64,000 nucleotides of DNA from an uncultured Gammaproteobacteria bacterium (GCA_964354025.1 CAYGXQ010000005.1:3366-67365); one strand, 5' to 3'. Shown: positions 8,779-60,917, numbered from the stretch's first letter. The notes: generated by a model from the letters alone, not told the origin. Numbers and translations: made by a program.

Positions 8779-8799
8779 AAATAATCCTACACCGATTTC

Positions 8800-9216: not shown

Positions 9217-9220
9217 AAAA

Positions 9221-9276
9221 TTAGCGTTTAGCTCCTAGCGTTTAGCGTTTCGTTTATAACTAGACGCTAGACGCTA
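9221..9276. repeat. Composite heptamer repeat: (TAGCGTT)n half followed by (CTAGACG)n half
   Basis: tagcgtttagctcctagcgtttagcgttt...ctagacgctagacgcta. Copies of the same family lie at 37037-37107 (inverted) and, split, at 37781-37813 plus 37959-37990. Confidence 0.7.
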
Positions 9277-10554: not shown

Positions 10555-10607
10555 AAGAGGTTTCTATCATACAAAAACGGGGCGGAAAAGAAAAGGAGGA
10601 AGATGGA

Positions 10608-11846
10608 TTAAATCTTTGTACCGCGCTCACCACGAAGATCAGCTTTAATATTAGGATCTTTTGACCACACAGTTATTTTATATTCCAGCAAGTCAAAAGC
10701 TCCTTCCCGTTTTATCTCTCCATCAGTACCGGTGTAATCTTTAAAGTCTGTTCTAATCAGTTCTATATGGGCAACAAATCTGAGTGACTCTAAAACTACC
10801 ACCTGACCTGCTCTGGCCGTTTCAATATTGCCAAATTGATACCTTAAATGCTGTCCCTCAAAAACAGGAATTCTGGCATTTGGAGATGTAATCGTACTGC
10901 AAACATTAGTATGACCTGTATTAGGATCATTTAGCTGAAATATTACTTGATCTGACAGATGAAAAACATAGGCATCGTTTACCGGATTATTTGAAGCATC
11001 ACGAGTTTCAAATAAATTATCTATTCTTAAGAAATTAAATCTTGCGCTATCTTCTTCATCAATAAAAAACATTTGGCTTATATCTGTACCATTATTTGTA
11101 AAACTAACCGAATGGCCAATCTGCCTCCAGCTTGGATCAACCGTTGCCTCATTTTTAGCTACTATCCTGCCAGACTGATAAGTATTTCCCTCAACTATTC
11201 TTAACCTTCCATCGGTTTCTGGTAAACTTGTCAAAAGGTGAGCTTCCTCGCTAGGAATAGGAATCGGCGTTGCCCCTGCCCGTGCCCCTTCCGCGTATCC
11301 GGCTGCTTGGATATCCTGCGTCATCTGCTGTCTCCAGGCAGCCAGAGTACCTGATAATCCCGGAGTTTCCATTGCTAATTTGCGCCAATCGGGGGATAAA
11401 TAATCATCCAGGATTACTAAATCCTCTTCGGTAAAACGATTTTGTTGGGAATCAGCCCTCCATTGTGTCGCCCTATGTATAAGATATTTAAGGTAACTTT
11501 TTAATGGTCCTCCATCTTGTGCCGGATCCTGAAATTGGGCTATTTGTCCGTCAGTAAGTTTATCATTTAAATCTAGGTAAGTTGTTAAAACATCCAACCG
11601 AAAATTTTTCTCGCCATCCTCCAAAGGAGCATTAACCAATAAAGACAGATAAACAGGCTCAATTATGTCATCAGTAACAAGATCTTCCGGCAGTTCTCCT
11701 CCCGGTGGCCGCCGTTTCTCTTGAAGCAGTTCGATTTGATGATTAACAACATTAAATATTGCGTTATGAATAGATAACTGACGAGTCTTCTCCGGTTTTG
11801 GCCGCGGATCTCCTGCTGTAAGTGGTGGATCTCCAATTAGTGACAT
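10608..11846 (-). CDS. Hypothetical protein
   Basis: Long ORF with no recognisable motifs. Confidence 0.5.
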   Translation of the reverse strand: MSLIGDPPLTAGDPRPKPEKTRQLSIHNAIFNVVNHQIELLQEKRRPPGGELPEDLVTDDIIEPVYLSLLVNAPLEDGEKNFRLDVLTTYLDLNDKLTDGQIAQFQDPAQDGGPLKSYLKYLIHRATQWRADSQQNRFTEEDLVILDDYLSPDWRKLAMETPGLSGTLAAWRQQMTQDIQAAGYAEGARAGATPIPIPSEEAHLLTSLPETDGRLRIVEGNTYQSGRIVAKNEATVDPSWRQIGHSVSFTNNGTDISQMFFIDEEDSARFNFLRIDNLFETRDASNNPVNDAYVFHLSDQVIFQLNDPNTGHTNVCSTITSPNARIPVFEGQHLRYQFGNIETARAGQVVVLESLRFVAHIELIRTDFKDYTGTDGEIKREGAFDLLEYKITVWSKDPNIKADLRGERGTKI

Positions 11847-11929
11847 ATATTTAAACTATAACACACCCAAAACCTTCGTCAAAGCCCAGAGGAAAAACCG
11901 CGAATTTAGAAGAAATAACTTGTAGAATA

Positions 11930-12898
11930 CTAAGATATTGGATAATGTATGGCAATAAAAGGAGGCACAGGCAAATCCACGCCCGCCATCTTGGCGGCCA
12001 ACTGTTTCATCTCATAGATTGCTGTCATATCCGGCGGAAGAACCGTTACCGCGGTTTTTGCCGGTTCTTCAAGTCCTGCCGACATATTTTTTGAAACCGG
12101 CGGTAACTGCCTGTATTGCTCTATTAGTTCTGGAGTCAGCTTAGTATAAAACCTTTCGTTAAAATTAAACTTAGCATTGTAACTATTATTTCCAACGCTT
12201 GCATGAACCAATCCGTAGCCTAAATCTTCACCGTATGGTTTTATACCTAATCGTGGAGATCCATCATGTTCATGGACTGCCCCGGAATATTCGGCAGATA
12301 AATTTCTTGTCGCATTTTCCCACTCTGGTTTACTTAAGCCTAAATAATCAGAATATACTCCATTACTTTGAACCGTTAGAATCCGTGCTACCGTATCATT
12401 ATTGCTGGCAATGTTACCCTCATGTATCTCAAGTCTTTCTAATTTTCTATCTTCACTTCCAAATTTTAAAAAGATTTTTTTATATCGTTGCTGTTTATGT
12501 TCCAATGAAAGATTGTCAGTGTGGGTTTTAATTTCCAGAATAGTCAGTTGCCCTTTTGGATCTCTATATACACCAATTTCATATTGTGTGTTTAGATTAC
12601 TCGGATCAGCAAGGATTGCTTTTATCCAGGGAGGAAGAGCTTGAGAATCATCAGGATCAGCAAGTTCTCTTTCTCCTTTAAATCCTTTTAATCCGGGCAT
12701 TAATACTTCAACCGCTTGTGAAGTTTGAAATAAGTCAAAATTCTCACTTAGTCGAGTCAGCGCGCTTCTCCATGAATCCTGTTCCCTGCCGGAAACCATG
12801 GGCGGCATTTGATCTCCCCAATGGTCAGCTTGTGCAACCGGAACTATTTTCGGGGGGGGCAAACCGGCAGTAGCATGTTCAGGAACCAACATTACCAT
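11930..12898 (-). CDS. Hypothetical protein
   Basis: Long ORF with no recognisable motifs. Confidence 0.5.
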   Translation of the reverse strand: MVMLVPEHATAGLPPPKIVPVAQADHWGDQMPPMVSGREQDSWRSALTRLSENFDLFQTSQAVEVLMPGLKGFKGERELADPDDSQALPPWIKAILADPSNLNTQYEIGVYRDPKGQLTILEIKTHTDNLSLEHKQQRYKKIFLKFGSEDRKLERLEIHEGNIASNNDTVARILTVQSNGVYSDYLGLSKPEWENATRNLSAEYSGAVHEHDGSPRLGIKPYGEDLGYGLVHASVGNNSYNAKFNFNERFYTKLTPELIEQYRQLPPVSKNMSAGLEEPAKTAVTVLPPDMTAIYEMKQLAAKMAGVDLPVPPFIAIHYPIS

Positions 12899-35926: not shown

Positions 35927-35964
35927 GAGATTGCTTCTCCCGACTAAGTCGGGATCGCAATGAC
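35927..35964. mobile_element. Partial copy (one arm) of the MITE-like GTCATTGCGA-TIR element
   Basis: gagattgcttctcccgactaagtcgggatcgcaatgac matches the reverse complement of the left half of the 37851-37944 element, with the 16 bp palindrome replaced by a short hairpin. Confidence 0.5.
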
Positions 35965-35988: not shown

Positions 35989-37002
35989 ATGATTACTTTT
36001 CTCAAAAAACGCTATAAGTTGATCCTCATCATCGCCCTCCTGGTTTTCGGCGGCTTTCTCTGCTACCGTAATTTCTTCGCGGCCAAAAACGGCAAGAAAG
36101 TCGACTCCGTCAAAGTCAAAAGAGGCACGCTTGAGGAAATACTGACCATTTCAGGCCAAGTTGAAGCCGACGAGAAAGTAACTCTCCGTTTCCAAACCTC
36201 CGGCAGACTGGCCTGGGTAGGGGTCAAGGAAGGCGACTACGTCAAAAAGTATCAAAGTATCGCCTCGCTGGATCAGCGCGAGATGAAAATGAACCTCGAT
36301 AAATACCTCAATACCTACATGAGCGAAAGATGGGATTTCGAGCAGACCAGAGATGATTATAAAGACACGTTCATTACCGACAAAATCAAGCGGATCAAGG
36401 AACAAACCCAGTTTGACCTGAATAATACGGTGACCGATGTTGAGATCAAAAACCTGGCCATCGAACTGGCCAATATGTTTACCCCGATCGAAGGGATAGT
36501 CACCCGGGTGGCTTCCCCTTACGCCGGGGTGAATGTCACCGCTACCCAGGCGGAATTTGACATCGTCAATCCCAAGACGGTCTATTTTTCTGCCCTGGCC
36601 GACCAGACGGAAGTGACCGAACTCTTCGACGGCAAGCCCGGCGAACTGACTCTCGATGCTTATCCGGAATCAACCTTCAGCGGAACGATCAAGAACATCT
36701 CTTTTAACCCCAAAAGCGGCGAAACCGGCACTGTCTACGCGGTGAAGTTTCTTTTTGACGGCGACAATACCGGCTACAAATACCGGTTGGGCATGGCCGG
36801 TGATTTGAGCTTTGTCACCAAAAGAAAAGAAGACGCCTTATACCTGCCGACAAAATTTGTCAAAGATGATAAATCAAAAAAATATGTCCAAATAAAGAAA
36901 AACGGCCAGACGGAAAAAGTTTACGTGGAAACCGGCATGGAGACGGACAGCAGTATCGAGATTACGAAAGGCGTGACGGAAGGAACGATTGTTTTCGATT
37001 AA
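35989..37002 (+). CDS. Efflux periplasmic adaptor (HlyD/MacA family)
   Basis: N-terminal TM; biotin-lipoyl-like and beta-barrel pattern; first gene of an ABC transporter operon. Confidence 0.7.
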   Translation: MITFLKKRYKLILIIALLVFGGFLCYRNFFAAKNGKKVDSVKVKRGTLEEILTISGQVEADEKVTLRFQTSGRLAWVGVKEGDYVKKYQSIASLDQREMKMNLDKYLNTYMSERWDFEQTRDDYKDTFITDKIKRIKEQTQFDLNNTVTDVEIKNLAIELANMFTPIEGIVTRVASPYAGVNVTATQAEFDIVNPKTVYFSALADQTEVTELFDGKPGELTLDAYPESTFSGTIKNISFNPKSGETGTVYAVKFLFDGDNTGYKYRLGMAGDLSFVTKRKEDALYLPTKFVKDDKSKKYVQIKKNGQTEKVYVETGMETDSSIEITKGVTEGTIVFD

Positions 37003-37036
37003 ATACCACACTCTATAAACATAAGAAAATATAAGA

Positions 37037-37107
37037 GCGTCTAGCGTCTAGATACTAGCGTCTAGTTAAGAAAAACTAAACGCTAAACGCTAGAAGCTAA
37101 ACGCTAA
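37037..37107. repeat. Composite heptamer repeat (inverted orientation) immediately upstream of the ABC ATPase gene
   Basis: Reverse complement equals ttagcgtttagcttctagcgtttagcgtttagttttt..ctagacgctagtatctagacgc. Confidence 0.7.
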
Positions 37108-37111
37108 ATTC

Positions 37112-37783
37112 ATGATACAACTCCAACACATCCATAAAGAATACAAGCTTGACGGGGATGTTTTCGTCGCCCTTAAAGACATCAATTTAAAAATCTCAGA
37201 CGGCGATTTTACGGCCATCGTCGGGCCATCCGGCTGCGGCAAATCCACCCTCATGCACATCATCGGCCTTTTGGATAATCCCTCAAGCGGAAAAATCACC
37301 ATTGACGGTAAAGATGTTTCTAAAATCACCGACGACGACCTATCCAAACTCCGCAACGAATTTGTCGGCTTTGTTTTCCAGCAGTTTAACCTGATAAATA
37401 AACTGACGGTAGCTGAAAATATTCTCCTGCCGACAATTTACTGCCGCAAAAAACTGGATTTTGTCCCCCAGCAAAGAGCCATGGAGCTGATGAAACGCTT
37501 TGAAATAGACTCCAAAGCCAAATCATACCCCAACAAGCTATCAGGCGGTCAGCAGCAGCGCGTCGCCATCGCCCGGGCTCTCATCAATAAGCCGAAACTT
37601 ATCCTGGCTGATGAGCCGACCGGAAACTTAGACTCCAAAACCGGTGAAAAAATCCTTGCTCTTTTGAAGGAGCTAAACGGCCACGACAAAATCACCATCG
37701 TCATGGTCACCCACGACAACCACATCGCCGAAAGGGCTAAAACTCACATCCATGTGCTGGATGGGGAGATCGTTGATAATTAG
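37112..37783 (+). CDS. ABC transporter ATP-binding protein (MacB/LolD type)
   Basis: Walker [10 protein letters not shown]; signature [15 protein letters not shown]; Walker [12 protein letters not shown]. Confidence 0.9.
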
Positions 37784-37813
37784 CGTTTAGCTTCTAGCGT
37801 TTAGCGTTTAGTT
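37781..37813. repeat. Composite heptamer repeat, first half (TAGCGTT)n. A perfect 33 bp inverted repeat of 37074-37106
   Basis: tagcgtttagcttctagcgtttagcgtttagtt; overlaps the stop codon of the ATPase gene. Confidence 0.7.
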
Positions 37814-37850
37814 AATGACAGTAGTTATGCAATGAATATTGATTTAGATT

Positions 37851-37944
37851 GTCATTGCGATCCCGAGTCCGCCAGCTGGCGGATCGAGGGAGAAGCAATC
37901 CCGTCCGAGATTGCCACGGCCAGTCAGACTGGCCTCGCAATGAC
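37851..37944. mobile_element. MITE-like element with 10 bp terminal inverted repeats GTCATTGCGA / TCGCAATGAC, carrying the 16 bp palindrome TCCGCCAGCTGGCGGA
   Basis: TIRs at 37851-37860 and 37935-37944; palindrome at 37868-37883; internal gaagcaatc / gattgcc inverted repeat. Homologous copy at 55998-56078. Confidence 0.6.
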
Positions 37945-37958
37945 ATAGAATAGCATGA

Positions 37959-37990
37959 CTAGACGCTAGCTTCTAGACGCTAGACGCTAA
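37959..37990. repeat. Composite heptamer repeat, second half (CTAGACG)n, separated from the first half by the MITE-like insertion
   Basis: ctagacgctagcttctagacgctagacgctaa. Confidence 0.65.
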
Positions 37991-37993
37991 TTT

Positions 37994-39202
37994 ATGACTT
38001 ACTTTATCTTCATCTTCAAATCCGCTCTTGAGGATTTCAGAAGGAACAAAATCAGGACTTTTCTGACTTCTCTCGGCATCCTCATCGGAGTTTCTTCCGT
38101 CGTCCTTCTCATCTCTTTTGGCTTAGGGCTAAAACAATATATCAAAAACCAGTTTGAATCCTTAGGCACCAACCTTATCATCATCATGCCGGGGAAAATA
38201 CTGGAAGGCGGCAGTTTCAGCTCAGGGGGCGGCGGCATCGGTGGCATCCGCTTTGACGAAAAAGATATTTTGGCTATCAGGAAAGTGAAAAATACCGCTT
38301 ATGTCGTCCCTGTTTACACCAAATCGGTAACCGTTTCAGGCGAAGGAAAGTCGGAAACCGGTACTCTTTACGCCACCACCGCAGACATCTTCCCTATCCG
38401 CAATCTTGAAGTCGAATACGGAAGCTTTTTTGATAAAAACGATGTCGAGAAAAGGAGCAAAAAACTGGTCATCGGGCCGAAACTGGCGGAAAAAGTTTTT
38501 GGCAGTAGCGATGATGCCCTCGGCAAAATCGTCAAGATCGAAAAACAGGCTTTCACTGTTGGCGGCATCTTAAAAAGTAAAGGCGGCGGCGGCTTCGGCG
38601 GGCCCGACTTTGACACTTTCGTCTATATGCCTTATAAATCTGCCCTGGCTTTTAATCCGGAAAAGCAATTCTATACCATCCTCATCAAAGCAAACAACGA
38701 AGAAGCCATCCCGCAGGTAAAAGACGACCTGAAAACCGCTCTTTTGAAAACCTACAAAGAAGACGACTTTTCCGTTGTCGAACAGACGGAGATCTTAAAC
38801 GCCGTCGCCTCAATCTTTGCCATCCTAAATACAGTTTTGATAGCTATCGCCGCAATCTCCCTGGTGGTGGGAGGTATCGGCATCATGAATATCATGTATG
38901 TCTCAGTCATTGAAAGAACCAGGGAAATCGGTATCCGACGGGCTATGGGAGCAACCGGCCGGGATGTGCTAATGCAATTTATTTTGGAAGCGGTCATCCT
39001 CTCTCTCATCGGCGGGCTGATGGGACTGGGATTATCTTTTCTGGTTGTCCTTCTCATCCAACCGTTTTTCCCGGCTTATGTGGACACCACCGCCGTCGCC
39101 ATCGCCATCGGCGTCTCTTCGGGGATCGGCATCATCTTCGGCGTGTTTCCGGCAAAAAGAGCGTCTGATCTGTCTCCGATTGAGGCGATAAGATATGAAT
39201 AA
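37994..39202 (+). CDS. ABC transporter permease, FtsX/MacB family
   Basis: N-terminal TM, large periplasmic domain and three C-terminal TMs; conserved GIMNIMYVSV.ERTREIG.RRA.GA segment. Confidence 0.85.
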   Translation: MTYFIFIFKSALEDFRRNKIRTFLTSLGILIGVSSVVLLISFGLGLKQYIKNQFESLGTNLIIIMPGKILEGGSFSSGGGGIGGIRFDEKDILAIRKVKNTAYVVPVYTKSVTVSGEGKSETGTLYATTADIFPIRNLEVEYGSFFDKNDVEKRSKKLVIGPKLAEKVFGSSDDALGKIVKIEKQAFTVGGILKSKGGGGFGGPDFDTFVYMPYKSALAFNPEKQFYTILIKANNEEAIPQVKDDLKTALLKTYKEDDFSVVEQTEILNAVASIFAILNTVLIAIAAISLVVGGIGIMNIMYVSVIERTREIGIRRAMGATGRDVLMQFILEAVILSLIGGLMGLGLSFLVVLLIQPFFPAYVDTTAVAIAIGVSSGIGIIFGVFPAKRASDLSPIEAIRYE

Positions 39203-39253
39203 GCAACCACTTCATTTCCGGAAGGTGATGACAATCTCTCGAAGGACCGTCCC

Positions 39254-40633
39254 CTATAGGTTCATAGAAAATAAAAATAGCTCAACGGGTATTAAACAAA
39301 GGTTTTTCCTCTGCAGATAATCATTTTTCGTAACAACAGTAAGCTTTTCTTTAGGAAATTTATCCATAAACCAGGAAAACTCGGCAGGATTAACGCGGTT
39401 TTGGAATTTTACCTCAAAATAAGACAGTTTCTGTTTATCCCTACCGATAAAATCAATCTCTCTGTCTTTTAACCGGCCGTAATAAAGATTTGGGAAGATA
39501 CGCCATAAATGCATCGCTGTCAGATTTTCAACTAAATGTGAAAGAAAAACCGGTTCAGTCAGTTTTTTCCTGGTAAACGAATACTGTTCATCGCGCATGT
39601 TTTCAATCTTCGCTAAAAAGCTCATGAGGATAAACGTGTCATTAAAATAAAACTTGTGGTTTTTCTTATAATCAGCCTTCCTTTGCGCCAGTTCAAAATA
39701 ATCCAGGTTGAAAACGGAAAACATTTGAGTCAGAAGATCAACATATTCAACCGCGCTCACATAAGAGGACAGACCGGCATTTTTGGCTAATTCGTAATAT
39801 GAAACCGGTGTCGTCAGCGAGCTGATCATTTTGGCAAAAATCAAATCGGCGGTTTTTTCCTGTTTGCCGAACTTATGCAAGTCGCCTATCACCCAGGAAG
39901 TGTAAATATCGGCAATCTCCGAGCTGATAAATCCTTTCTCGTAAAATTCGTTGATGACTGCCGGGAAGCCGCCGGTAAGAAGATAATCTTTAAAAAGGGC
40001 TTTTAATTTCGGCAGATGCAGCTTTTCCCGGCCCTTTTGCCAATCCCTGCTTTCAGGATAAACCATCTTCGCGAAATCCTTAAACAATAAAGGCAGAAAA
40101 ACAATGTCTTTTTCTTTGATATTGCCCCGCCTGCCGGGAAGCCTTTCTGAGGAAAACTTCAAATCAACGGTTGATGAGCCGGTCAGGAAGAAAAGCGTTT
40201 TTTTGCCCCACTGGCTTTCCGCGAAATCCTTGATTGTTCTTTGCCATTCTTTTACAAACGAGATTTCATCCAGAAAAACATAGTGAAAATCAGCCGTTTC
40301 TCCAAATTCCTGAAAATACGCATTGATGATATCAGAAAGCTCAAGAAAGGAAGAAACCGTGTTCAGGGAATAATAAAAAATGCCTTTGGGATTGACTTTA
40401 TCCTCCAGAAGAAGTTTTTTTATTATCTGCTTTGAGAGAGTGGTTTTACCTATTTGTCTAGGTCCGCGCAAAGTCATGACACCCGGCTCGTTTTCCGGAA
40501 AAGCGGAAAGAAGAGGGTGGATGAACTGAAATTTGCGGCCGGCGACTTCTTTAAGCTTATCGTCAGCCAAAATCAGCTCTTTCTCTCCCCACCAGGGATT
40601 TTTCTGGTATAAGGATAAAATATCAGGCGACAT
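39254..40633 (-). CDS. AAA+ ATPase with a DUF4143-like C-terminal region (second paralog)
   Basis: Walker A LRGPRQIGKTTL; Walker B VFLDEISF. Confidence 0.75.
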   Translation of the reverse strand: MSPDILSLYQKNPWWGEKELILADDKLKEVAGRKFQFIHPLLSAFPENEPGVMTLRGPRQIGKTTLSKQIIKKLLLEDKVNPKGIFYYSLNTVSSFLELSDIINAYFQEFGETADFHYVFLDEISFVKEWQRTIKDFAESQWGKKTLFFLTGSSTVDLKFSSERLPGRRGNIKEKDIVFLPLLFKDFAKMVYPESRDWQKGREKLHLPKLKALFKDYLLTGGFPAVINEFYEKGFISSEIADIYTSWVIGDLHKFGKQEKTADLIFAKMISSLTTPVSYYELAKNAGLSSYVSAVEYVDLLTQMFSVFNLDYFELAQRKADYKKNHKFYFNDTFILMSFLAKIENMRDEQYSFTRKKLTEPVFLSHLVENLTAMHLWRIFPNLYYGRLKDREIDFIGRDKQKLSYFEVKFQNRVNPAEFSWFMDKFPKEKLTVVTKNDYLQRKNLCLIPVELFLFSMNL

Positions 40634-40774
40634 ATATAACTATCACTTATGCTTTTATCACAAAAAAGCATAATTGTCAAATAGGTAATATTGAGGAGGT
40701 TATATCAACATCTCAAAGGACTGTCCCCTATTTGTACTATGTCCCCTATTTGTACTATTTGTTTATTATTCTCC

Positions 40775-41257
40775 TTAATCATTTAACCATGTACAATTTG
40801 GTGAGGTAGCACCGTACTTTTTTCCACATTCATTTCTAAAAAATTGATAAATTCCATCTTTTTCTTCCCGCTTAAGGGGCTTTCCCTCTATGCCTTCCAC
40901 CTTAGATATAACTGATTTACAATTTGCAACTGTATTATTCCCATTCAAGCAATTTATTCCTGCCTCTTTGAAGTTCTTTATTATCTCTGCTGTTTGTCCA
41001 AGCTGATTACCTGCGTCTTGTATTGCACCACCCGCTGTTTGACCTGCCTGTACGATTTGTTGTCCTGCTTGTTGTACCGGAGTGCTCGGAGAAGAAGTAG
41101 AAGATCCTCCCCCACAGGCTATAAGCCCACTATCGGTTTTCCCGCTTCTCACTGGATGATCACCAACATCACATGATTTTGCAAAATATTTTATTGGTTC
41201 TTCTGCTGGTGGTGCTGGAGCACAACTGCTTAGTATACTTGCTGCCAATCCGGCCAC
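40775..41257 (-). CDS. Putative secreted protein or lipoprotein (GTG start) overlapping the 3' end of toxin gene 1; candidate immunity protein, or the result of a frameshift
   Basis: ..AASILSSC lipobox-like sequence followed by a Cys-containing Gly/Gln-rich region; 89 nt out-of-frame overlap with 41169-41900. Confidence 0.4.
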   Translation of the reverse strand: MAGLAASILSSCAPAPPAEEPIKYFAKSCDVGDHPVRSGKTDSGLIACGGGSSTSSPSTPVQQAGQQIVQAGQTAGGAIQDAGNQLGQTAEIIKNFKEAGINCLNGNNTVANCKSVISKVEGIEGKPLKREEKDGIYQFFRNECGKKYGATSPNCTWLND

Positions 41258-41900
41258 TACTAATGTTGTACCAAAATTTAAAACTGCTTAATGTTGCACT
41301 GCCTAGGATCACCGCGGCGCTCACCAAGGCATCCTTTCCAGTAATTGCTGCTCCTTTGCTTCCTGTTCTCTCAAAAAATTTAGGATAAGATTCCTGCGCT
41401 TCTTTACCTACCCATATACCCTGTCCGGTATTATTTCTTTTTCTGCAGTTTTCCTCTTCTCCATAAGCACATTCCCAATTTCCTGAAGGATCATTTCTTA
41501 TAATGGGATTTCCTTCGACGTAGGCAAACCGGTTTGGCGAGTCCGCCAGCTGGCGGACGGAGTCCGCGGAAACGAAACGGGAAAGAACAGGATCGTAGTA
41601 GCGGGCGTTATAGTAAGAAAGAGTTGTTTTATCATCTTTAATTTGACCAGTGTAGGCACGTTCAGTGGCGGGATTTGAGGAATTTGGGGAACCGTAGGGA
41701 GAATATTTGGATTGGGAGATATTGTTTCCTTTATCATCCGAGACAGCAATCACTGATCCCAGATTGTCGGTATGAATATAGTAAGTAGATTCGGTGTAGG
41801 AAGCGTGAACAGGATGAGCAATGATAAATGATAAATTATAAATTACAAATGAAATTACAAATGACAGAATGCAAAATTTAGAATTTAGTAATTTAAACAT
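41169..41900 (-). CDS. Sec-signal + RHS-core + short variable tip protein (polymorphic toxin cassette 1)
   Basis: N-terminal hydrophobic signal ending AHPVHA/SY; RHS core motifs YYIHTDNLGSVIAVSDDKGNN...YNARYYDPVLSRFVSADSV...NPIIRNDPSGN. The last ~30 codons look like read-through in a wrong frame. Confidence 0.7.
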   Translation of the reverse strand: MFKLLNSKFCILSFVISFVIYNLSFIIAHPVHASYTESTYYIHTDNLGSVIAVSDDKGNNISQSKYSPYGSPNSSNPATERAYTGQIKDDKTTLSYYNARYYDPVLSRFVSADSVRQLADSPNRFAYVEGNPIIRNDPSGNWECAYGEEENCRKRNNTGQGIWVGKEAQESYPKFFERTGSKGAAITGKDALVSAAVILGSATLSSFKFWYNISSGRIGSKYTKQLCSSTTSRRTNKIFCKIM

Positions 41901-41938
41901 TTAATTTAGCATTTATAATTTATAATTTGTAATTTATT
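41822..41938. repeat. A/T-rich heptanucleotide-periodic tract spanning the start codon and signal peptide of toxin gene 1
   Basis: gataaat gataaat tataaat tacaaat ... tataatt tataatt tgtaatt; 7 nt periodicity over about 115 nt. Confidence 0.7.
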
Positions 41939-41947
41939 AACAGTATG

Positions 41948-42397
41948 TCACGAAGACAGAAGGGGTGTCAATTTTTCGATCAATTCCTTCGGGGAAACGA
42001 TGTGGAAATCCCTGATCTTTTTCCGCAGGATCAATAAATGTTTTTTATCCAAAGTCACCAAATAATCTGCTTCATTTTCACTGCAGGAAGCCAAAACATG
42101 GGAATCTCCCCTGTCGATAACTATTTTGTCGAATAAGGAAATAATTGATTGCTCGGGCGCTTCGGCTATTTTGGAAAATATCTTCGTGACTTCTGTTTTT
42201 GCCTTTTGGGGTGTCTGTTTTATCTTCGGCGCCCGGCGGCATACTTCATCAAGAATAATCTCGCTGATCAAACCGCTGATCTTCCCCTTCTTCACCCACG
42301 ACAGCAGTTTTCCCGACCCGCCTGAAGGAGAATGAAGTCCCGCCAGAATCACCGAAGCATTGAAAAAAACTACCGGAGCATGACTGTGTCGTCTCAT
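41948..42397 (-). CDS. PIN-domain toxin (VapC-like)
   Basis: N-terminal VVFFNASVILAGL; C-terminal DSHVLASCSENEADYLVTLDKKHL pattern; start abuts the stop of the AbrB-type gene. Confidence 0.65.
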   Translation of the reverse strand: MRRHSHAPVVFFNASVILAGLHSPSGGSGKLLSWVKKGKISGLISEIILDEVCRRAPKIKQTPQKAKTEVTKIFSKIAEAPEQSIISLFDKIVIDRGDSHVLASCSENEADYLVTLDKKHLLILRKKIRDFHIVSPKELIEKLTPLLSS

Positions 42398-42666
42398 TAT
42401 AATAAATGTTTTTTCTTTAAGATTTTCGAGTCTTCCCGGTCAAGCGCCAGAAACCCGTTTATTTCTTTACCGGAATAACTTCTTACCGGATAAGAAAGAG
42501 TCCTGACCGGCTCCAATATCAGTCTTCCCCGGTCTTTCCTCACCCTCACCAATCCTCTTTCCTCCAAACCAATCTCATCCCGCAGTTTTTTAGGGATGGT
42601 CAGAAGTCCCTTAGGCTGGACTTTGATGATTTCTTCAAAAGGAATAGTCTGCATAATTTTCTGCAA
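42397..42666 (-). CDS. AbrB/SpoVT/MazE-type antitoxin
   Basis: QPKGLLTIPKKLRDEIGL swapped-hairpin motif. Confidence 0.65.
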   Translation of the reverse strand: MQKIMQTIPFEEIIKVQPKGLLTIPKKLRDEIGLEERGLVRVRKDRGRLILEPVRTLSYPVRSYSGKEINGFLALDREDSKILKKKHLL

Positions 42667-42802
42667 TTCTAACTTTCTATATTATAGAATATTTGGATAA
42701 ATGTCAACTTCTATAAGCGAACGCAGACTAAAGTCTGCTCTTCCAAATAAAATCGCGTTTGAAGCCATCCGGCAGCCGACGAAGAAAAGGCAACGAAGAA
42801 GT

Positions 42803-43090
42803 TCATACTCCTGCCAGTTGAGGATGTTTATCGCCAATTTTCTCCATAACCCACATCCGGATAAGTTGTGTCGGGCCTAAACCTTTCTTTTTTGCCTGAT
42901 TTCTGACGTCATTCAGAGTATCAGCGTCCAGACGGATGTTGAGTGTTTCTGACAGGTTTCTCGCAAACTTAACTTTTGCGGATTTACCATTATCCCACGC
43001 TTTATCAAAGTGTTTTTCCCAATAATCAGCTTCTTTTGTGCGGTTCTTAAATACCGATATATCAGGCATAGATGGTTTGACTTTATTCAT
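42803..43090 (-). CDS. brnA: BrnA-like antitoxin
   Basis: C-terminal NIRLDADTLNDVRNQAKKKGLGPTQLIRMWVMEKI RHH-like tail; 4 nt overlap with the upstream BrnT. Confidence 0.65.
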   Translation of the reverse strand: MNKVKPSMPDISVFKNRTKEADYWEKHFDKAWDNGKSAKVKFARNLSETLNIRLDADTLNDVRNQAKKKGLGPTQLIRMWVMEKIGDKHPQLAGV

Positions 43091-43353
43091 GATTTAACCT
43101 CCTTTATAAATGCTGTAATAACATAATATGTTCCGTTACTGTAAGGTCGCAGATTCCGATCTTCAGGTGATAATACAATAGCGAGTTGCTTACCTCTCTT
43201 TGTCTTACCGGTGATAAGAATCCTTTTCCGGTAACTTTCCCTGACTTTATGTTTTCCGTGACAAACTTCTTCAATATCTTCCTGTGTAATTCCATGATGA
43301 TTCATGTGCTTTCTATTCCAATCATCCCAAATCAGTCTCTTTACCACGATCAT
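43087..43353 (-). CDS. brnT: BrnT-like (DUF497) ribonuclease toxin
   Basis: IWDDWNRKHMNHHGITQEDIEEV...YYVITAF pattern. Confidence 0.65.
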   Translation of the reverse strand: MIVVKRLIWDDWNRKHMNHHGITQEDIEEVCHGKHKVRESYRKRILITGKTKRGKQLAIVLSPEDRNLRPYSNGTYYVITAFIKEVKS

Positions 43354-43538
43354 AAGTTATCAACATTGTAACACATTGTGCTACAAAGTCAATCCCGGGA
43401 TAGCAGATAAAAAAAGTGAAGCAGGCCGAACTGATTGAGGAAAAAGTGACGAAATAACTTCATTTCCGGAAGGTGGTGGCAATCTCTCAAAGGACCCCTA
43501 TTTCTTTTTCTATTTTTTCCAATATTGTCATGTTTATG

Positions 43539-44789
43539 TTATGGAGTCACCAATGTATTTATCCATAACTTGGTTAAATTGGGATAATGAAGATTATATT
43601 TTTCTGCTGTACCAATATTCGCGACCCATTTACGCCAAACATCATTTCTCCCACTATAACTAAAAATCCATGATTGTCCTTGATGTATCTCTGGCATAAA
43701 CCAACCTGTAAGTTGGCAGGCCGCACTTTCCTTTATGTCTTGTTGGTAATCAGAAATGGAATTATCAATATAATAAGAACCATAATCTTCTTGCGGTCCA
43801 CTCTTTTGTTTATTCGATTTGGGAGGAATCGCCAACTTACCATAAATATTTTCCCAATATACAGAATCTTTTGTTGCTGCTTCTTGGTAGCTTTCTTCAT
43901 TAAAATTCTTCAACATAAGATAATGCGTTGCTTCATGAACAAACTCGTGTTCCTGCTGCCATTGAGGTAGTGTAAATGTTCGTGGATCCAAAAAAACTGA
44001 TGAAGGGAAATATTCACCTTCTCTTTCGAAACTATTATTTAAATAATTTTCGCCTATATCTGTTCGATTAATATACAATCCCTTCAGGATATTTGGATTA
44101 TGGGTTATATATATTATTCTTTCGATGCTTTTTTCAATCGATTTAATTTCATTTGTACGCCATGCCCACATACTTCGATAGTATGGATTATTTTTATAAC
44201 CTGGCCATCTATCCGGATTATTTATATCTTCTTCTTTTATTTCCTGGTCTACATTATAAGCAAAGGAAACACCATATTTTTTAGAAATTTTTTGTGCTAA
44301 TTGGAATGATTCATTTGTATCCTTTACATAAGATTCAAATTGTAAATCTATACCTTCATCTGCCCTTTGTCCTCCCGGATCATTCATCATGATCGGATTA
44401 CCACCCACATAGGAGTATCTGTTCAGCTGGTCCGCCAGCTGGCGGACGCTATCAGCCGAAATAAATCTGGATAAAACTGGGTCATAGTACCTCGCGTTAT
44501 AATATGCCAGTTGGGTGTTCTTATCCGCAATTTGACCTGTATATTCTCTTTCAGTTGTAGGTTGTAAGTTGTAGGTTGTAAGTTCATTTCCATATGGAGA
44601 ATACTTGGTTTGTGAGACATTGTTTCCTTTATCATCTGAGACAGCTATCACTGACCCCAGATGATCCTGATGGATATAGTAGGTGGTTTCGGTGTAAGCG
44701 GCGTAGACCGGAGAAATGAATAATCCAATAAACAAATAACCCAATAATCCAATGAATATAACAATGAAACAATGTAGCAATTTATCCAT
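43539..44789 (-). CDS. Sec-signal + RHS-core + HExxH metallopeptidase-like tip (polymorphic toxin cassette 2)
   Basis: Signal peptide; core YYIHQDHLGSVIAVSDDKGNN..YNARYYDPVLSRFISADSVRQLAD..NPIMMNDPGGQ; tip contains HEFVHEATH. Confidence 0.75.
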   Translation of the reverse strand: MDKLLHCFIVIFIGLLGYLFIGLFISPVYAAYTETTYYIHQDHLGSVIAVSDDKGNNVSQTKYSPYGNELTTYNLQPTTEREYTGQIADKNTQLAYYNARYYDPVLSRFISADSVRQLADQLNRYSYVGGNPIMMNDPGGQRADEGIDLQFESYVKDTNESFQLAQKISKKYGVSFAYNVDQEIKEEDINNPDRWPGYKNNPYYRSMWAWRTNEIKSIEKSIERIIYITHNPNILKGLYINRTDIGENYLNNSFEREGEYFPSSVFLDPRTFTLPQWQQEHEFVHEATHYLMLKNFNEESYQEAATKDSVYWENIYGKLAIPPKSNKQKSGPQEDYGSYYIDNSISDYQQDIKESAACQLTGWFMPEIHQGQSWIFSYSGRNDVWRKWVANIGTAEKYNLHYPNLTKLWINTLVTP

Positions 44790-44790
44790 A
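44712..44790. repeat. Heptamer-periodic tract spanning the start and signal peptide of toxin gene 2
   Basis: aataatc caataaa caaataa cccaata atccaat gaatata acaatga aacaatg tagcaat. Confidence 0.6.
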
Positions 44791-44791
44791 T

Positions 44792-44846
44792 GGATTAGCG
44801 GATTTTAATCCGCGCAAATTAACGCGCAATAAATTGCGCTATTCCA
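44792..44846. promoter_or_regulatory. Two-palindrome operator-like module upstream of toxin gene 2
   Basis: GCGGATTTTAATCCGC (44798-44813) and GCGCAATAAATTGCGC (44824-44839). The same module recurs at 46782-46869 and, reordered, at 48160-48248. Confidence 0.5.
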
Positions 44847-44858
44847 ATTTGTAATCTA

Positions 44859-45170
44859 ATGCCATTGTGGCATGAAAACGGAAGAACTGTCAAACCGGGT
44901 TTGTCTATACTTCCCTTCTCTGCTACAATAATAATCACTATGGCTCATATCTGGGACTACGATATCAACGAACTTAAAAAGACAGAGCAAGGCAGGCTCC
45001 TTATCCTTGAACGGATGATCAATTTCGGTCCCGACAAGAGAGAAAAGATCAGTCTTTCACAAGTTAAAAAAAATTGGGATAAATTGCATCTGTTCCCGAG
45101 TGCCAAAAAGCTTCTGGAACTTCTGATATGGGGAAAATATCTGTCCTCACCGGAAAACAAAAGATCGTAA
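44859..45170 (+). CDS. Small 'WDYD' protein (probable true start at MAHIWDYD), partner of the decayed NTase gene
   Basis: Homologous to 32911-33159. Confidence 0.4.
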   Translation: MPLWHENGRTVKPGLSILPFSATIIITMAHIWDYDINELKKTEQGRLLILERMINFGPDKREKISLSQVKKNWDKLHLFPSAKKLLELLIWGKYLSSPENKRS

Positions 45171-45478
45171 TAGATGAGATAAAGAAGGAAAAAAACCTGG
45201 CTTCCCGATTCTATCTCACGGGCGGGACCGCTCTTTCGGCATTTCATCTTCAGCACCGCTATTCTGATGATCTGGATCTTTTCAGTGATGATGCCTTTGA
45301 TAAGGAAAAAATCGTTAATTTCATCAAGAGACTGGCCACTCAAAGATTTTTTCCGGAAGCAGGCGGAACTGATAGGGAAAAAGGTGACAAGATAAACTTC
45401 ATAAGGTGTCAAGCCGGTACACCTGGAAGGTGTACGAGTGGACATCCGGCAGGCCGCAAAGAATCTAGAGGAAAATAA
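45128..45478 (+). pseudogene. Truncated or frameshifted GGTAL nucleotidyltransferase (AbiEii-like) gene
   Basis: N-terminal FYLTGGTALSAFHLQHRYSDDLDLFSDD matches 32241-32918; after about 80 aa the sequence diverges into low-complexity residues and stops early. Confidence 0.5.
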
Positions 45479-45521
45479 GATCGTATATAATAAGGGAAAT
45501 AAACTACTTCATTTGGAAATT

Positions 45522-54976: not shown

Positions 54977-55043
54977 ATATTTGGATTTTGTATTAATTGA
55001 GGCAGGCGGTAAGAATTATACTTAACCAATTATCATAATGCAA

Positions 55044-55107
55044 CGCTATCCTCGCCGCCATCGTCATCGCCCTCATCTCCAGTATCCTCAACGTGATCTT
55101 CCAGTAA
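55044..55107 (+). repeat. Duplicated 3' end of the holin-family gene (last ~18 codons plus stop), near-identical to 52880-52943
   Basis: 54 nt identical (gccgccatcgtcatcgccctcatctccagtatcctcaacgtgatcttccagtaa), plus a similar 10 nt before it. Confidence 0.75.
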
Positions 55108-55708: not shown

Positions 55709-55796
55709 ATTCCATGTCTCCTCCTTCGGCATGGCCATCCTCGCCTCCATCGTCATCGCTATCCTCTCCAGCATCGTGAATGTGATTTTCCAGTAA
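55709..55796 (+). repeat. Second, diverged copy of the holin-gene 3' end (about 85 percent identity to 52856-52943)
   Basis: ttccatgtctcctccttcggcatggccatcctcgcctccatcgtcatcgctatcctctccagcatcgtgaatgtgattttccagtaa. Confidence 0.7.
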
Positions 55797-55997: not shown

Positions 55998-56078
55998 GTC
56001 ATTGCGAGCAAAACGAAGTGAAGCGAAGCAATCTCTTATAAATTTAGATTGCCGCGTCGCTACGCTCCTCGCAATGAC
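55998..56078. mobile_element. MITE-like element, second full copy (TIR GTCATTGCGA / TCGCAATGAC)
   Basis: TIRs at 55998-56007 and 56069-56078; internal gaagcaatc..agattgcc as in the 37851-37944 copy. Confidence 0.6.
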
Positions 56079-58168: not shown

Positions 58169-58762
58169 TTATAAACCTAACTGTCCTTTGATCCTACTTA
58201 TTACTGCTTCTCTGTATTCATTACCATACCACTGCGGCAGATTCCACAAATCGGCAAAAATCTGCGCCGGAGGGGTCTTTTTATAAACGCGAAGAAACGG
58301 GTCCTGCTTCAAAATATAAATATTAGCCTCTTTTTTTATGTTTAGGGGAAACCGAGCCATAATCTCTTGCGGATTTAGGGAATAAAAATAGACCGTTTCA
58401 TAATCAGCCGGCATTTGGGAAGAATAAAATCTGACGGCCGAATAAGCTGTCGGTAAAACATCGGAGGGCATGGAAGCCTCAATGGCAAAAACCGTCATCG
58501 GATTATATGTCTTATAAACAATATCCCCGACGACGTCCCGCCTGGTGGCCCAAAAAAAGAGTAATCTATAGGCATCAACTACTTTAGAATTGTTTTTCCC
58601 CACCTGAACCATCCCGGCCTTTCTTAATGGATATAGAGCGTGGGAAACCATGCTAGTAGAAAGGCCGAATTTCTCCGCCAGTTCCGAAAGACGGAAATCC
58701 GCATTTTTCTCCTCTATCGACCGGTAAAGAAGCTCCCTCCAGATATATTCTATTTTATTCAT
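58169..58762 (-). CDS. Putative winged-helix transcriptional regulator
   Basis: N-terminal LSELAEKFGLSTSMVSHALYPLRKAGMV HTH-like segment. Confidence 0.45.
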   Translation of the reverse strand: MNKIEYIWRELLYRSIEEKNADFRLSELAEKFGLSTSMVSHALYPLRKAGMVQVGKNNSKVVDAYRLLFFWATRRDVVGDIVYKTYNPMTVFAIEASMPSDVLPTAYSAVRFYSSQMPADYETVYFYSLNPQEIMARFPLNIKKEANIYILKQDPFLRVYKKTPPAQIFADLWNLPQWYGNEYREAVISRIKGQLGL

Positions 58763-58841: not shown

Positions 58842-60917
58842 TTACATCTTCTCTACCGTTTCGATCCCGAGGATGAAAAGACCTCTTTTGATAAGGTTTG
58901 CCGTAGTTTGAGTCAGAACCAGACGGAAATCGGATTCCAATATCGTGTGTTTCTGGTAAAAGAGGCTGTAGCTTTGCGCCAGCTCAAAAAGATAAGCACA
59001 GAGAAGGTGCGGCGAGAAAGCCGCGGCCGCCTCGGCGACCACCTCCGGGAAGCGGTAGAAAAGACGGAGAAGTGATAACTCTTCAGTATTAGGTATTAGG
59101 TATTTGGTATTAAGTATTTTTTTGTTTTCTTCTTTTATACCTGATACCTGATACCTGATACCTGATACCTTCTCAGCTTTTCTCATCACGCTCATACACC
59201 TCGCGTAGGCATACATGAGGTACGGCCCGCTGTCGCCTTCGAAGGAAACTGACTTGCCGAAGTCGAAGACGATGTCATTGCCGATGTTGTTTTTGAGAAG
59301 GGCGTATCTGATGGCTCCGAGGGCCACTTTTTCCGCGATTTCTCCAATTTCGGTTCCCCCTTCTGCTTTTCTGTCTGTTTTTGCGATAATCTCCAAAACT
59401 CTTTTTTTAGCCTCCTCCAGAAGCCACTCGAAGGTGATGACGTTGCCCGAGCGCGAAGACATCTTGCCTTCCGGCAGCCTAACCATGCCGTGGGCGATGT
59501 GATAGGCTTTCTCCCCCAATTCCGGCTCGATCTTTTTCATGGCCGCCTTCACCACTTTGTAATATTCGTCTATTTCTTTACCGAAAACATTAATTGATAA
59601 ATCGTATTTGAAATCTTGATATTTGGCCATAGCCAATCCCAAGTCTTTAGCCTCATAGGTAGGCAGACCGAGTTTATTGACAAAAACCCTGGTATGCAGG
59701 CCGTCCTGTTCACCCCGGTAGACGACTCCCCCTTCGCTTTTTTCCAAAACGCCCAGCTTCAAACCCTTTTCCACCAGCTTCATCCCGTACTCGCCCACCC
59801 ACGACTCCGGATAATAGCCGTCGAACTTCGTTCCCAGCCTTTTGTAGATCGTCTCAAAATATTCCAGGCTCCACTTCAAACCTGCCCCGTAGACCTCCCT
59901 GACCTCCTCCAGACGGTCTTCTTTACCATGAACATACTGTTTATAGTCAATGATCGGCTGCCAGCCTTTGTCTTTCTTCAAAATCTCCTGCGCGGCCACG
60001 TAAATAAGGGAATTGATCTCCTTAACCTCTTCCGCAACCTTCTTATCCTCATCAAACTTTATCGTCCCCAAAGCATAACCTTCCCCAAGCAGTTTCTGCC
60101 TTTCGGATATGGGTAACTTCCCAAGCTCGTGAATGTATTTTCTTAATTCTTCTAAATATTCTTTCCCTTTCAGAATTTGTAATTTGTCATTTGTAATTTG
60201 TAATTTAGCTAAAAGTCCGTATAGACTTTTAGCGATATGCATCCCTACATCTCCGTAAAAATCTCCCCGCCAGACGGTTGCTCCGCAGGCTTCAAACAGC
60301 CTGGCGATAGCCTCGCCGATGAAGTTGGAATACATATGCCCGAGGTGAAACTCCTTAAAAGGGTTGGGGTCTGTATATTCAACGGCAATTTTCTTTCCCG
60401 TCATTTGGGCTGTTATGACCGGATATTTCATATCTAGCACTCTCTCCATCTGACTGATAATGCATGGGGTAGCCACAACCAGATTTAAGAAGCCACAGCC
60501 TGCAATTGATACATTCTCCAGGATACTTTTTGGAGAAATAGTCAGATCCGAAGGTACATAACTATCAGCTTTAACTGCTATCGTTTGATCTTGTCCTATA
60601 TATTCATCTATTTTTCGTTTTAGCTTCTCCGCCAACTCAATCGGCTTCATTTTTAGTCTTTTAGCCATGATCATGGCGATATTAGAAGAATAGTCCCCAT
60701 AACCTTTATTTATAGGATGTTCGATAAAAATAGCGGAAAAAGGGATTTTTTCGCCTGTTTCCCCCAAAACCTCCCCTACGGCCTGGCGGATGACGCACCG
60801 CAGCTGGAAAGCAAGAGAGTGCGGATCATCGGTGATGATCTTGGGGAATTTCCTTTCTGTTCTCGGATCAATGGCAAATTTCATAATATATCCTGACACG
60901 CTGGGTGACTTTCTCAA
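58842..60917 (-). CDS. argS: Arginine--tRNA ligase (class I)
   Basis: VEYTDPNPFKEFHLGHMYSNFIGEAIARL (HIGH region) and KMSSRSGNVITF (KMSKS region). Long, at 691 aa, with an in-frame heptamer tract at 60174-60206. Confidence 0.9.
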   Translation of the reverse strand: MRKSPSVSGYIMKFAIDPRTERKFPKIITDDPHSLAFQLRCVIRQAVGEVLGETGEKIPFSAIFIEHPINKGYGDYSSNIAMIMAKRLKMKPIELAEKLKRKIDEYIGQDQTIAVKADSYVPSDLTISPKSILENVSIAGCGFLNLVVATPCIISQMERVLDMKYPVITAQMTGKKIAVEYTDPNPFKEFHLGHMYSNFIGEAIARLFEACGATVWRGDFYGDVGMHIAKSLYGLLAKLQITNDKLQILKGKEYLEELRKYIHELGKLPISERQKLLGEGYALGTIKFDEDKKVAEEVKEINSLIYVAAQEILKKDKGWQPIIDYKQYVHGKEDRLEEVREVYGAGLKWSLEYFETIYKRLGTKFDGYYPESWVGEYGMKLVEKGLKLGVLEKSEGGVVYRGEQDGLHTRVFVNKLGLPTYEAKDLGLAMAKYQDFKYDLSINVFGKEIDEYYKVVKAAMKKIEPELGEKAYHIAHGMVRLPEGKMSSRSGNVITFEWLLEEAKKRVLEIIAKTDRKAEGGTEIGEIAEKVALGAIRYALLKNNIGNDIVFDFGKSVSFEGDSGPYLMYAYARCMSVMRKAEKVSGIRYQVSGIKEENKKILNTKYLIPNTEELSLLRLFYRFPEVVAEAAAAFSPHLLCAYLFELAQSYSLFYQKHTILESDFRLVLTQTTANLIKRGLFILGIETVEKM

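Follow-up and report, generated by a model that had tools for sequence, protein, structure and literature searches.

An inverted dimer of REP-type units shares a 16-nt palindrome with neighbouring toxin genes in a locus of Patescibacteria origin

We analysed a 64,000-nucleotide stretch of DNA deposited under the name of an uncultured Gammaproteobacteria bacterium (GCA_964354025.1, CAYGXQ010000005.1:3366-67365; hereafter 'the window', with positions counted from its first letter), in which a small element at 37851-37944 had been taken by a first-pass annotation for a miniature inverted-repeat transposable element (MITE) whose palindromic 16-mer, TCCGCCAGCTGGCGGA, also occurs in genes of a nearby toxin family. 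Our finding is that this element is an inverted dimer of small units of the repetitive extragenic palindromic (REP) type and not a transposase-derived MITE, and that the sharing of the 16-mer among one REP unit, two toxin genes and the leader of a third toxin gene is real and beyond chance. By its architecture, compared with the features published for such repeats, the element may be classified as a further family or variant within the super-family of CGTC-tagged REPs. The account as a whole, in which a CGTC-type REP dimer carries the 16-mer as a slot variant and short-patch copying brought the palindrome into the toxin genes, is the one that we favour with somewhat better than even confidence.

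The end sequence GTCATTGCGA has five exact sites in the window, namely 37851 (+), 37935 (-), 55998 (+), 56069 (-) and 35955 (-), and nine sites when one mismatch is allowed, compared with 3.6 expected and with none of 100 shuffles reaching nine; inner GAAGCAATC/GATTGC motifs lie at positions 37892, 56025 and 35929. These ends and all four copies of TCCGCCAGCTGGCGGA were found where the first-pass annotation had placed them, and both exceed chance by far when judged by shuffles. The boundaries of the copies, which it had proposed to be conserved, are indeed sharp in 142 unique copies from other genomes, with ends one to two bases longer than it had given: a pyrimidine stands at -1 (C in 64% and T in 33% of 318 units) and a purine at +1, and the tag of the element is therefore (C/T)GTC...GAC(G/A).

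With its tags outermost (T-GTC...GAC-A), the dimer extends over 37850-37945, between an ABC ATPase gene and the first of two permease genes. Its left unit, U2 (37851-37900, plus strand), reads GTCATTGCGA-(TCCCGAG-TCCGCCAGCTGGCGGA-TCGAGGGA)-GAAGCAATC with the slot in parentheses and the 16-mer (37868-37883) at the apex of the slot hairpin, and its right unit, U3 (37909-37944, minus strand), reads GTCATTGCGA-(GGCCAGTCTGACTGGCC)-GTGGCAATC and has a hairpin that is found only once in the window. As single-stranded DNA the dimer is predicted to fold into a four-way junction with -29 kcal/mol (z = -5.75). What had been described as a half copy is a single REP unit, U1 (35929-35964, minus strand; GTCATTGCGA-(TCCCGACTTAGTCGGGA)-GAAGCAATC), located 25 nt upstream of an hlyD-like gene, and a second inverted dimer at 55998-56078, composed of units at 55998-56033 (+) and 56047-56078 (-), has near-canonical slots and a predicted fold with z = -6.0. 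The window contains in total five REP units, that is, two dimers and one singleton, of which four are tagged with TGTC and one with CGTC; the stem ATTGC...GCAAT is seen in all of them, and their slots are GC-rich hairpins of 17-31 nt, private to each unit.

When IMG/VR contigs were scanned for the two ends spaced 50-80 nt apart (GTCATTGCGA-N50-80-TCGCAATGAC), at least 120 contigs with such a dimer were identified. Their common architecture is (C/T)GTC-ATTGC-GA-slot-GAA (or GCG/GTG)-GCAAT-CC(A)G, followed by a spacer of ~15-25 nt and the mirror image. Across the 142 unique copies, C or T precedes GTC and G or A follows GAC, the composition is random beyond two positions on either side, and a flanking direct repeat is absent in 123, the remainder having repeats of 1-5 nt at chance level. 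Over 318 tabulated units, roughly one half of the tails read CCA and one quarter CTC, and those in the window read CCC or CTC. The canonical slot in other genomes is a minihairpin GC-GNA-GC, which accounts for 89 of the tabulated 7-nt slots (GAA 48, GCA 25, GTA 9 and GGA 7), and longer slots are varied GC-rich hairpins, 191 of them distinct in 513 units. A canonical unit comprises five perfect base pairs of stem, then a GA/GAA internal loop and then the minihairpin, which we take to be the GNA-triloop DNA minihairpin motif; this points to folded single-stranded DNA as the form in which the unit matters.

The element is found at no fewer than 40 places in plasmid pSA1 of Novosphingobium resinovorum, 15 nt past a dioxygenase gene in pNL2 of N. 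aromaticivorans, in Methylosinus and Methylobacterium plasmids, and at 4237-4318 of a contig (L121) of a Microgenomates metagenome-assembled genome (MAG), which also encodes the closest relatives of the toxins. Lone units exist as well, both in the window (35929-35964) and in a phage contig (L213), where eight same-strand units lie between phage tail genes; these CGTC-type units stretch over 3339-12744 of that contig, interspersed with structural genes. In a Mu-like phage (contig L222, 8290-8400) a REP unit stands beside TTAATTG heptamers. Phage genomes could be carriers of CGTC-type repeats between hosts. Rfam yielded no matching family for the window or for eight loci that hold canonical copies, and a full-text literature search with the terminal and inner sequence strings returned primers only. 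Likewise, no partner gene emerged near the copies when 5198 open reading frames (ORFs) from 120 short loci were clustered all-against-all, the clusters being structural proteins of phages or of the gene transfer agent type and spurious ORFs of high GC content.

The closest known system is the super-family of CGTC-tagged REPs (Di Nocera, De Gregorio and Rocco 2013, BMC Genomics 14:522; PMC3733652). Its members carry an unpaired CGTC or TGTC tag (CCTC being allowed), a stem of 8-9 bp that opens with A-T pairs, a loop of 4-5 nt and a 3-nt tail that is mostly CCA, and occur mainly as inverted dimers, which may fold either into a single long hairpin or into two. Alphaproteobacteria dominate among the hosts, with outliers in Chlorobi, Bacteroidetes, Spirochaetes and Thermotogae; the repeats are mostly intergenic, between genes of the same direction or convergent genes, and have no dedicated transposase. 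The super-family takes in dRS3 of Neisseria as well as RPE-4 and RPE-6 of Rickettsia, the latter two being intragenic, and its authors note that bulged or unusual members may have been missed (PMC3733652). The element described here likewise has the (C/T)GTC tag, a stem that opens with A-T pairs (CGTC-ATT...AAT-CC), an organization in inverted dimers and an intergenic or occasionally intragenic location; no transposase was found, and it is abundant in Alphaproteobacteria and scattered in other phyla. It differs in that the window units hold private hairpins of 17-31 nt instead of a 4-5 nt loop, and in that the host phylum, Patescibacteria, lies outside the five phyla named in the paper. The REP-encoded peptides listed for CGTC-1 to CGTC-4 (VIPAKAGI, VILDGRNIEF, VIPGLDPGI and VIPVLDTGI; Additional file 3 of PMC3733652), which belong to encoded stretches of 8-10 to ~30 amino acids, yield upon back-translation none of the sequences seen here, so that, judged by these peptides, the element fits none of the four families. 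We regard the repeat as an ordinary member, or a slightly aberrant family, of a known super-family, in a phylum that does not appear in PMC3733652.

Other known systems are matched in part. With REPINs, the doublets mobilised by RAYT (TnpA-REP) tyrosine/HUH transposases, the element shares the inverted doublet folding as one long or two hairpins, the lack of a target duplication and a spread presumed to proceed via single-stranded DNA with an enzyme acting in trans. However, CGTC takes the place of the GTAG tag, the window ORFs scanned include no RAYT gene, and the conserved ends are common to several phyla, unlike the lineage-specific REPIN sequences. Like Rickettsia palindromic elements and other intragenic REPs, the repeat-derived insert in the toxin genes described below is in-frame, absent in orthologues and tolerated by the protein, but the genes hold just a hairpin tip of 12-18 nt and no whole unit. 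Mobile GC clusters of yeast mitochondria and HIP1 of cyanobacteria are very short GC-rich palindromes in AT-richer genomes, located both between genes and in-frame within them, and the mechanism behind them is not known; there is no relation in sequence to the 16-mer, of which the window has four copies, all within 9 kb.

As for MITEs such as Correia and Nezha, the likeness is evident: terminal inverted repeats, small size (81-94 bp), several to many copies and a location between genes would all be in line with a deletion derivative of an insertion sequence (IS) that a DDE transposase moves via the 10-bp terminal inverted repeats. Yet a target-site duplication is lacking in 123 of the 142 unique copies and at the window copies, half units stand alone (at 35929 and eight times on one strand in the phage contig), and, as in REPs, it is in the form of hairpins that the inner parts are conserved. 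No parent IS was found in the window or in the loci examined, and neither a Pfam match to a transposase, integrase or recombinase nor a Y1/HUH gene was detected among the scanned ORFs of at least 100 residues in the 64-kb window; a cognate transposase was also not found beside the copies in the 120 loci. The MITE reading is thus largely refuted, and we give it very little credence.

The 16-mer TCCGCCAGCTGGCGGA occurs exactly at 37868, 41542, 44431 and 46816, that is, four times in the window, where 0.01 occurrences are expected and 0 of 100 shuffles match this count, so its frequency is far from the random expectation; no further sites are found in the window within two mismatches. With a preceding G, the identity of all four copies extends to 17 nt, and those in the two toxin genes are perfect palindromes of 18 nt, GTCCGCCAGCTGGCGGAC. 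The relation to the repeat follows from a comparison of U1 and U2, which are identical save for the tip of the hairpin: U1 reads TCCCGA-CTTAG-TCGGGA and U2 reads TCCCGA-G-(16-mer)-TCGAGGGA. The 16-mer is the apex of the slot hairpin of U2, and U1 is the same unit without it.

The palindrome also fills REP slots in genomes unrelated to the window. In the phage contig L213, which was detected by a scan for REP heads with a palindrome core at most 14 nt further on, one unit reads GTCATTGCGAG-GA-(16-mer)-GAC-GAAGCAACC beside seven ordinary units, that is, exactly GCGAAGC of the standard unit GAG-GA-GCGAAGC-GAC-GAA is swapped for the 16-mer. In the Mu-like phage contig L222, detected by a scan for the bare 16-mer, the palindrome constitutes the entire slot (TTCATTGCGA-(16-mer)-GAAGCAATC), and a further contig (L350) with the same flanks holds a loop variant that differs by one base and probably represents the same site. 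No toxin gene was seen around the 16-mer-bearing REP units of the phage contigs. Its presence as slot sequence in two unrelated phage contigs shows that the 16-mer is part of the repertoire of this repeat family and is not of toxin-gene origin. Palindromes of at least 14 nt with no loop are rare among the slots (one of 191 distinct long slots, plus the L222 slot from the same scan), and coincidental recurrence of the 16-mer in REP slots is therefore unlikely, although a palindrome holds only half the information of a random 16-mer. When sharing of k-mers between any REP slot and nearby DNA was considered, the test was confounded by degenerate copies, and after inspection the effect was confined to the window. 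The link between repeat and toxins, which rests on one 9-kb neighbourhood and on two phage contigs, is real and unusual but mechanistically unexplained.

Elsewhere, the 16-mer forms the core of a 24-nt perfect palindrome in a ~250-nt, structured-looking non-coding region of a Bacteroidetes-like contig of 35% GC (L149, 11020-11280). A role as an uptake signal or as a Chi-like site was considered and rejected: the sites are too few, isolated half-sites TCCGCCAG or their complement number five versus ~1 expected by a rough estimate, and GCTGGCGG, one mismatch away from E. coli Chi, is encountered just three further times in the 64 kb.

In toxin 1 (ORF 41169-41900) and toxin 2 (ORF 43539-44789), both on the minus strand, the 18-nt palindrome GTCCGCCAGCTGGCGGAC occupies homologous codons at 41541-41558 and 44430-44447, respectively, and is read in-frame as GTC CGC CAG CTG GCG GAC, encoding V-R-Q-L-A-D as had been noted in the first-pass annotation. 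The same source also supposed that toxin 3 (45522-46775, minus strand) had lost four codons at a site fixed in the toxin family. Comparison with relatives reverses this polarity. Toxin 3 retains the ancestral GTG AAT GAT (V-N-D), and the change in toxins 1 and 2 is from AAY (N) to CGC CAG CTG GCG (RQLA), with a net gain of 9 nt or three codons. A codon-level comparison with nine close relatives, comprising two loci in the Microgenomates MAG and seven metagenome contigs, revealed the short form of the site in all nine, as S-(V/I)-N-D in seven and as TASD and SVGD in the other two, with the codons GTC AAC GAC being present in three of them (L159, L160 and L165). In an exhaustive search of 1.84 billion representative proteins, SVRQLAD is present only in toxins 1 and 2 among the 30 closest proteins; a word-indexed protein search had yielded just five toxin relatives. 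Since the relatives have the short form and RQLA is seen only in toxins 1 and 2, the palindrome is a recent, derived gain in this lineage and toxin 3 has lost nothing. Exact-protein look-ups of the ABC ATPase, of toxin 2 and of P0129, a protein similar to toxin 3, returned no match.

How the two toxin genes came to share the insertion is less evident. Toxin 1 belongs to a subfamily with the motif DS.NRFAYVEGNPI (as in L121), and toxins 2 and 3 to one with DQ.NRYSYVGGNP (as in L122). Around the site toxins 1 and 2 are ~65% identical and nevertheless share an identical 20-mer, and toxin 2 is ~90% identical to the palindrome-free toxin 3 on either side; therefore, either the same change occurred twice, or a very short patch was moved between the toxin paralogs. 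The codons that flank the palindromes are ancestral toxin sequence, and a whole REP unit is absent from the genes. Template switching in toxin 2 via an adjacent CAGCTG was tried as a source and rejected: it cannot yield the observed sequence, and toxin 1 has no CAGCTG. Toxin 1 and an overlapping ORF at 40775-41257 match a single relative of 361 residues (P0134), so toxin 1 is probably frameshifted or split.

The fourth copy of the 16-mer is located, as had been pointed out before, in the toxin-3 5' leader (the ATG being probably at 46775), where it is part of a 38-nt module, TCCTTCG-(16-mer)-TCAGGACAAGCCAAG, at 46809-46846. Comparison of the leaders of toxin 2 (44791-44847) and toxin 3 (46785-46871) shows that this module stands in place of an 8-nt spacer (CAAATTAA in the toxin-2 leader) between an inverted pair of a second hairpin repeat. 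The module aligns with the hairpin-plus-GAAGCAAT part of U2 at ~80% identity and is probably a headless unit of the U2 type. An origin as a fragment of a toxin gene was rejected, because the corresponding 26/29 alignment hangs on TCCGCG of the adjoining hairpin repeat and the alignment with U2 is no worse. A promoter-like TTGACA-18-CATACT at 46917-46888 (minus strand) predicts that the module falls in the 5' untranslated region of toxin 3. The second hairpin repeat is itself REP-like: it consists of TTGGAWTAGC followed by a 16-nt hairpin (GCGGATTTTAATCCGC, GCGCAATAAATTGCGC, GCGCACTAAAGTGCGC or GCAGACTAAAGTCTGC), is found at 42723-42746, 44790-44847, 46784-46871 and 48160-48250, with a similar hairpin at 1027-1042, and is arranged as inverted pairs both in the toxin-2 and toxin-3 leaders and downstream of permease gene 2.

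The following account of how repeat and palindrome may have spread appears the most likely to us. In view of the sharp ends, the missing target duplication and the conserved GNA triloop, the REP unit most likely spreads in the form of a folded single DNA strand, which an enzyme provided in trans would recognise and copy, by analogy with other REPs and with REPINs. Within the operon, the unit would be transcribed and would act, if at all, as a hairpin of the mRNA. In two diverged toxin paralogs, the 12-nt core CGCCAGCTGGCG would have taken the place of the loop in a pre-existing mini-dyad GTC-AAC-GAC, which we consider the weakest step, most likely by short-patch templated copying from a nearby hairpin copy through ectopic conversion or template switching, a route to which we assign low confidence; selection would then keep only the in-frame outcomes.

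Several points weigh against this account. The perfect stem comprises 5 bp here versus 8-9 bp in CGTC-tagged REPs, and it is of the type ATTGC...GCAAT where the peptides of CGTC-1 to CGTC-4 imply ATTCC...GGAAT. Short-patch copying is improbable a priori, given that microhomologies are only ~3 nt long and the same codon would have been hit in two paralogs, and a directed insertion would explain the repeated landing at dyad centres better. The location of the four copies within 9 kb of the 64 kb (p ~0.01 by our own estimate) fits local copying and also a local function. To our knowledge, a mobilising enzyme is established for no CGTC repeat, and the single-strand mechanism is put forward by analogy.

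The palindrome might alternatively be a self-standing insertion module of 12-18 nt (GTCCGCCAGCTGGCGGAY, with core CGCCAGCTGGCG) that is directed to the centres of existing dyads, namely to hairpin tips of REP units (three unrelated genomes), to the spacer of a dimer resembling REPs and to the GTC-AAC-GAC loop (two toxins), possibly by whichever enzyme acts on CGTC repeats. Each window copy that has a palindrome-free counterpart indeed replaces a dyad centre: CTTAG of a U1-type tip in U2, the 8-nt spacer in the leader, and AAC between GTC and GAC in the toxins. The 16-mer likewise replaces exactly GCGAAGC in a standard GGA-x-GAC unit of the phage contig L213 and the whole slot in L222, and the frames around it are not alike in the three genomes, a point against simple descent from a single REP variant. 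CGTC is found directly 5' of the core at three of the four window sites, the window copies are all perfect, with no decayed copies within two mismatches, and six of ~14 independent occurrences in IMG/VR contigs below 55% GC extend to perfect palindromes of 22-24 nt. However, no mechanism is known for moving 12-18 nt, the sharing of slot k-mers with nearby DNA is not general in the family, and the halved information of a palindrome makes recurrence among millions of hairpins less surprising. Moreover, the IMG/VR total of 55 is of the same order as the rough chance value of ~16, which assumes uniform composition and would be larger in GC-rich DNA. We consider such a module, the main rival to short-patch copying, improbable.

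The first-pass annotation had proposed a site of recombination or nicking that shuffles toxin cassettes. That two of the paralogs carry the palindrome in the conserved end of the RHS core and the third one in its leader, that the palindrome reads CGTC, the tag of the repeat family, and that the paralogs are visibly mosaic, with toxin 1 resembling toxin 3 in alignment columns 91-180 and toxin 2 resembling toxin 3 in columns 241-450, would favour such a role. Yet the relationships among the paralogs are the same on both sides of the palindrome, with no switch at its start (column 365), and the mosaic breakpoints are located ~120-270 nt upstream of it. The junction between conserved and variable regions is not at the palindrome either, since the latter lies ~60-75 nt upstream of that junction. 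Furthermore, all other toxin-family members that were examined lack the palindrome, which is thus a derived, lineage-specific insertion in toxins 1 and 2 among these relatives, phage REP units carry it with no toxin gene seen nearby, and the window ORFs that were scanned included none for a recombinase, an integrase or an HUH protein. A recombination or nicking site for cassettes appears quite unlikely to us, and the current view of cassette exchange in polymorphic toxins remains unchanged. An operator for a transcription factor that co-regulates the island of toxin and exporter genes is more doubtful still. The 16-mer is a perfect dyad, all four copies lie within 9 kb, and two of them precede paralogous permease genes, by 118 nt for the gene at 37994 and by 93 nt for that at 46917, where the promoter region is divergent. 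However, the four copies are identical over 17 nt, while real operators vary between sites, two copies lie ~350 nt inside coding sequence, no promoter-like site was found in 37700-38050, and REP slots of unrelated genomes hold the same 16-mer. A regulator gene does not adjoin, the sole helix-turn-helix match in the window being a weak one of ArsR type at 58169-58762, more than 11 kb away.

The genomic setting of the REP dimer is an operon that has been invaded. Based on Pfam matches, an hlyD-like gene, the ABC ATPase gene and a MacB-FtsX-type permease gene 1 occupy 35989-39202 on the plus strand, and permease gene 2 (46917-48146) is split from permease gene 1 by a 7.7-kb island of toxin and toxin-antitoxin (TA) genes at 39203-46916. 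In three orthologous operons (L210, L211 and L212; 70-78% amino acid identity) the order hlyD-ABC-permease 1-permease 2 is compact with spacers of 0-36 nt, and neither REP units nor heptamer arrays nor the palindrome were found in them, whereas the spacer between ATPase and permease in the window measures 210 nt and holds the REP dimer. This comparison indicates that REP units, heptamer arrays and the toxin/TA island invaded a once-compact operon. Homologues of the permeases identify the host as a Patescibacteria population (Gottesmanbacteria/Microgenomates-like). An independent Logan assembly of 3.9 kb (L209, run ERR3804373) agrees base for base with window 37922-41784, the palindrome of toxin 1 included; its ends fall inside the REP dimer and inside toxin 1, as is expected of repeated DNA.

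CGTC-tagged repeats are widespread, and neither the enzyme nor the mechanism behind them is known. The present locus combines evidence of invasion, a compact operon in relatives versus a repeat-laden one here, with an extension of the CGTC-type architecture to a genome of the candidate phyla (Patescibacteria) and to phage contigs, which suggests a route of spread between phyla. It is of further interest that a module found in the variable hairpin slot recurs in different genomes and has entered two protein genes in-frame. If the insertion into the toxins was directed, it would provide a handle on how the repeats are made and moved; if it resulted from rare templated repair, it would be a small curiosity. 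Should a self-standing insertion module exist after all, it would imply DNA insertion that is directed to hairpin tips and is able to remodel protein genes in-frame.

The island at 39203-46916, whose flanking permease genes are adjacent in relatives, encodes an AAA/DUF4143 ATPase, the three small signal-peptide RHS-core toxins, PIN/MazE and BrnT/BrnA-like pairs and AbiE fragments. A 40-nt repeat at 39209-39248 and 43457-43496, and in weaker form at 40683-40722, marks module ends of the island. The heptamer arrays, which resemble the STRR (short tandemly repeated repetitive) sequences of cyanobacteria, are tandem arrays of ~4.3-4.9 copies (~30-33 nt) with units such as TTAGCGT, CTAGACG, AATTTGT, AGTTGTA and ATACCTG. 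They are intergenic at 9221-9276, 9936-9968, 37036-37108, 37780-37811, 37959-37989, 41820-41937 and 49248-49329 and lie inside ORFs at 44553-44584, 46549-46579, 59086-59170 and 60174-60206; in-frame arrays occur in toxin 2 (TTYNLQPTT), in toxin 3 (EALSVKRQAES) and in an arginyl-tRNA synthetase ORF. Two nested inverted pairs of such arrays, within 37029-37107 and 37780-37995, enclose the ABC ATPase gene (37112-37783), the inner pair being a perfect inverted repeat of 34 nt (37074-37107 and 37780-37813) and the outer one measuring 38 nt with 87% identity (37029-37066 and 37958-37995), a geometry that would permit inversion of, or formation of a very long mRNA stem around, an entire gene. Finally, the 87 nt at the 3' end (52857-52943) of a holin-like gene (PF04020, 52608-52943) are repeated at 55021-55107 and 55710-55796 with 78-85% identity; these repeats, which are probably gene remnants, share a long non-coding stretch with the second REP dimer.

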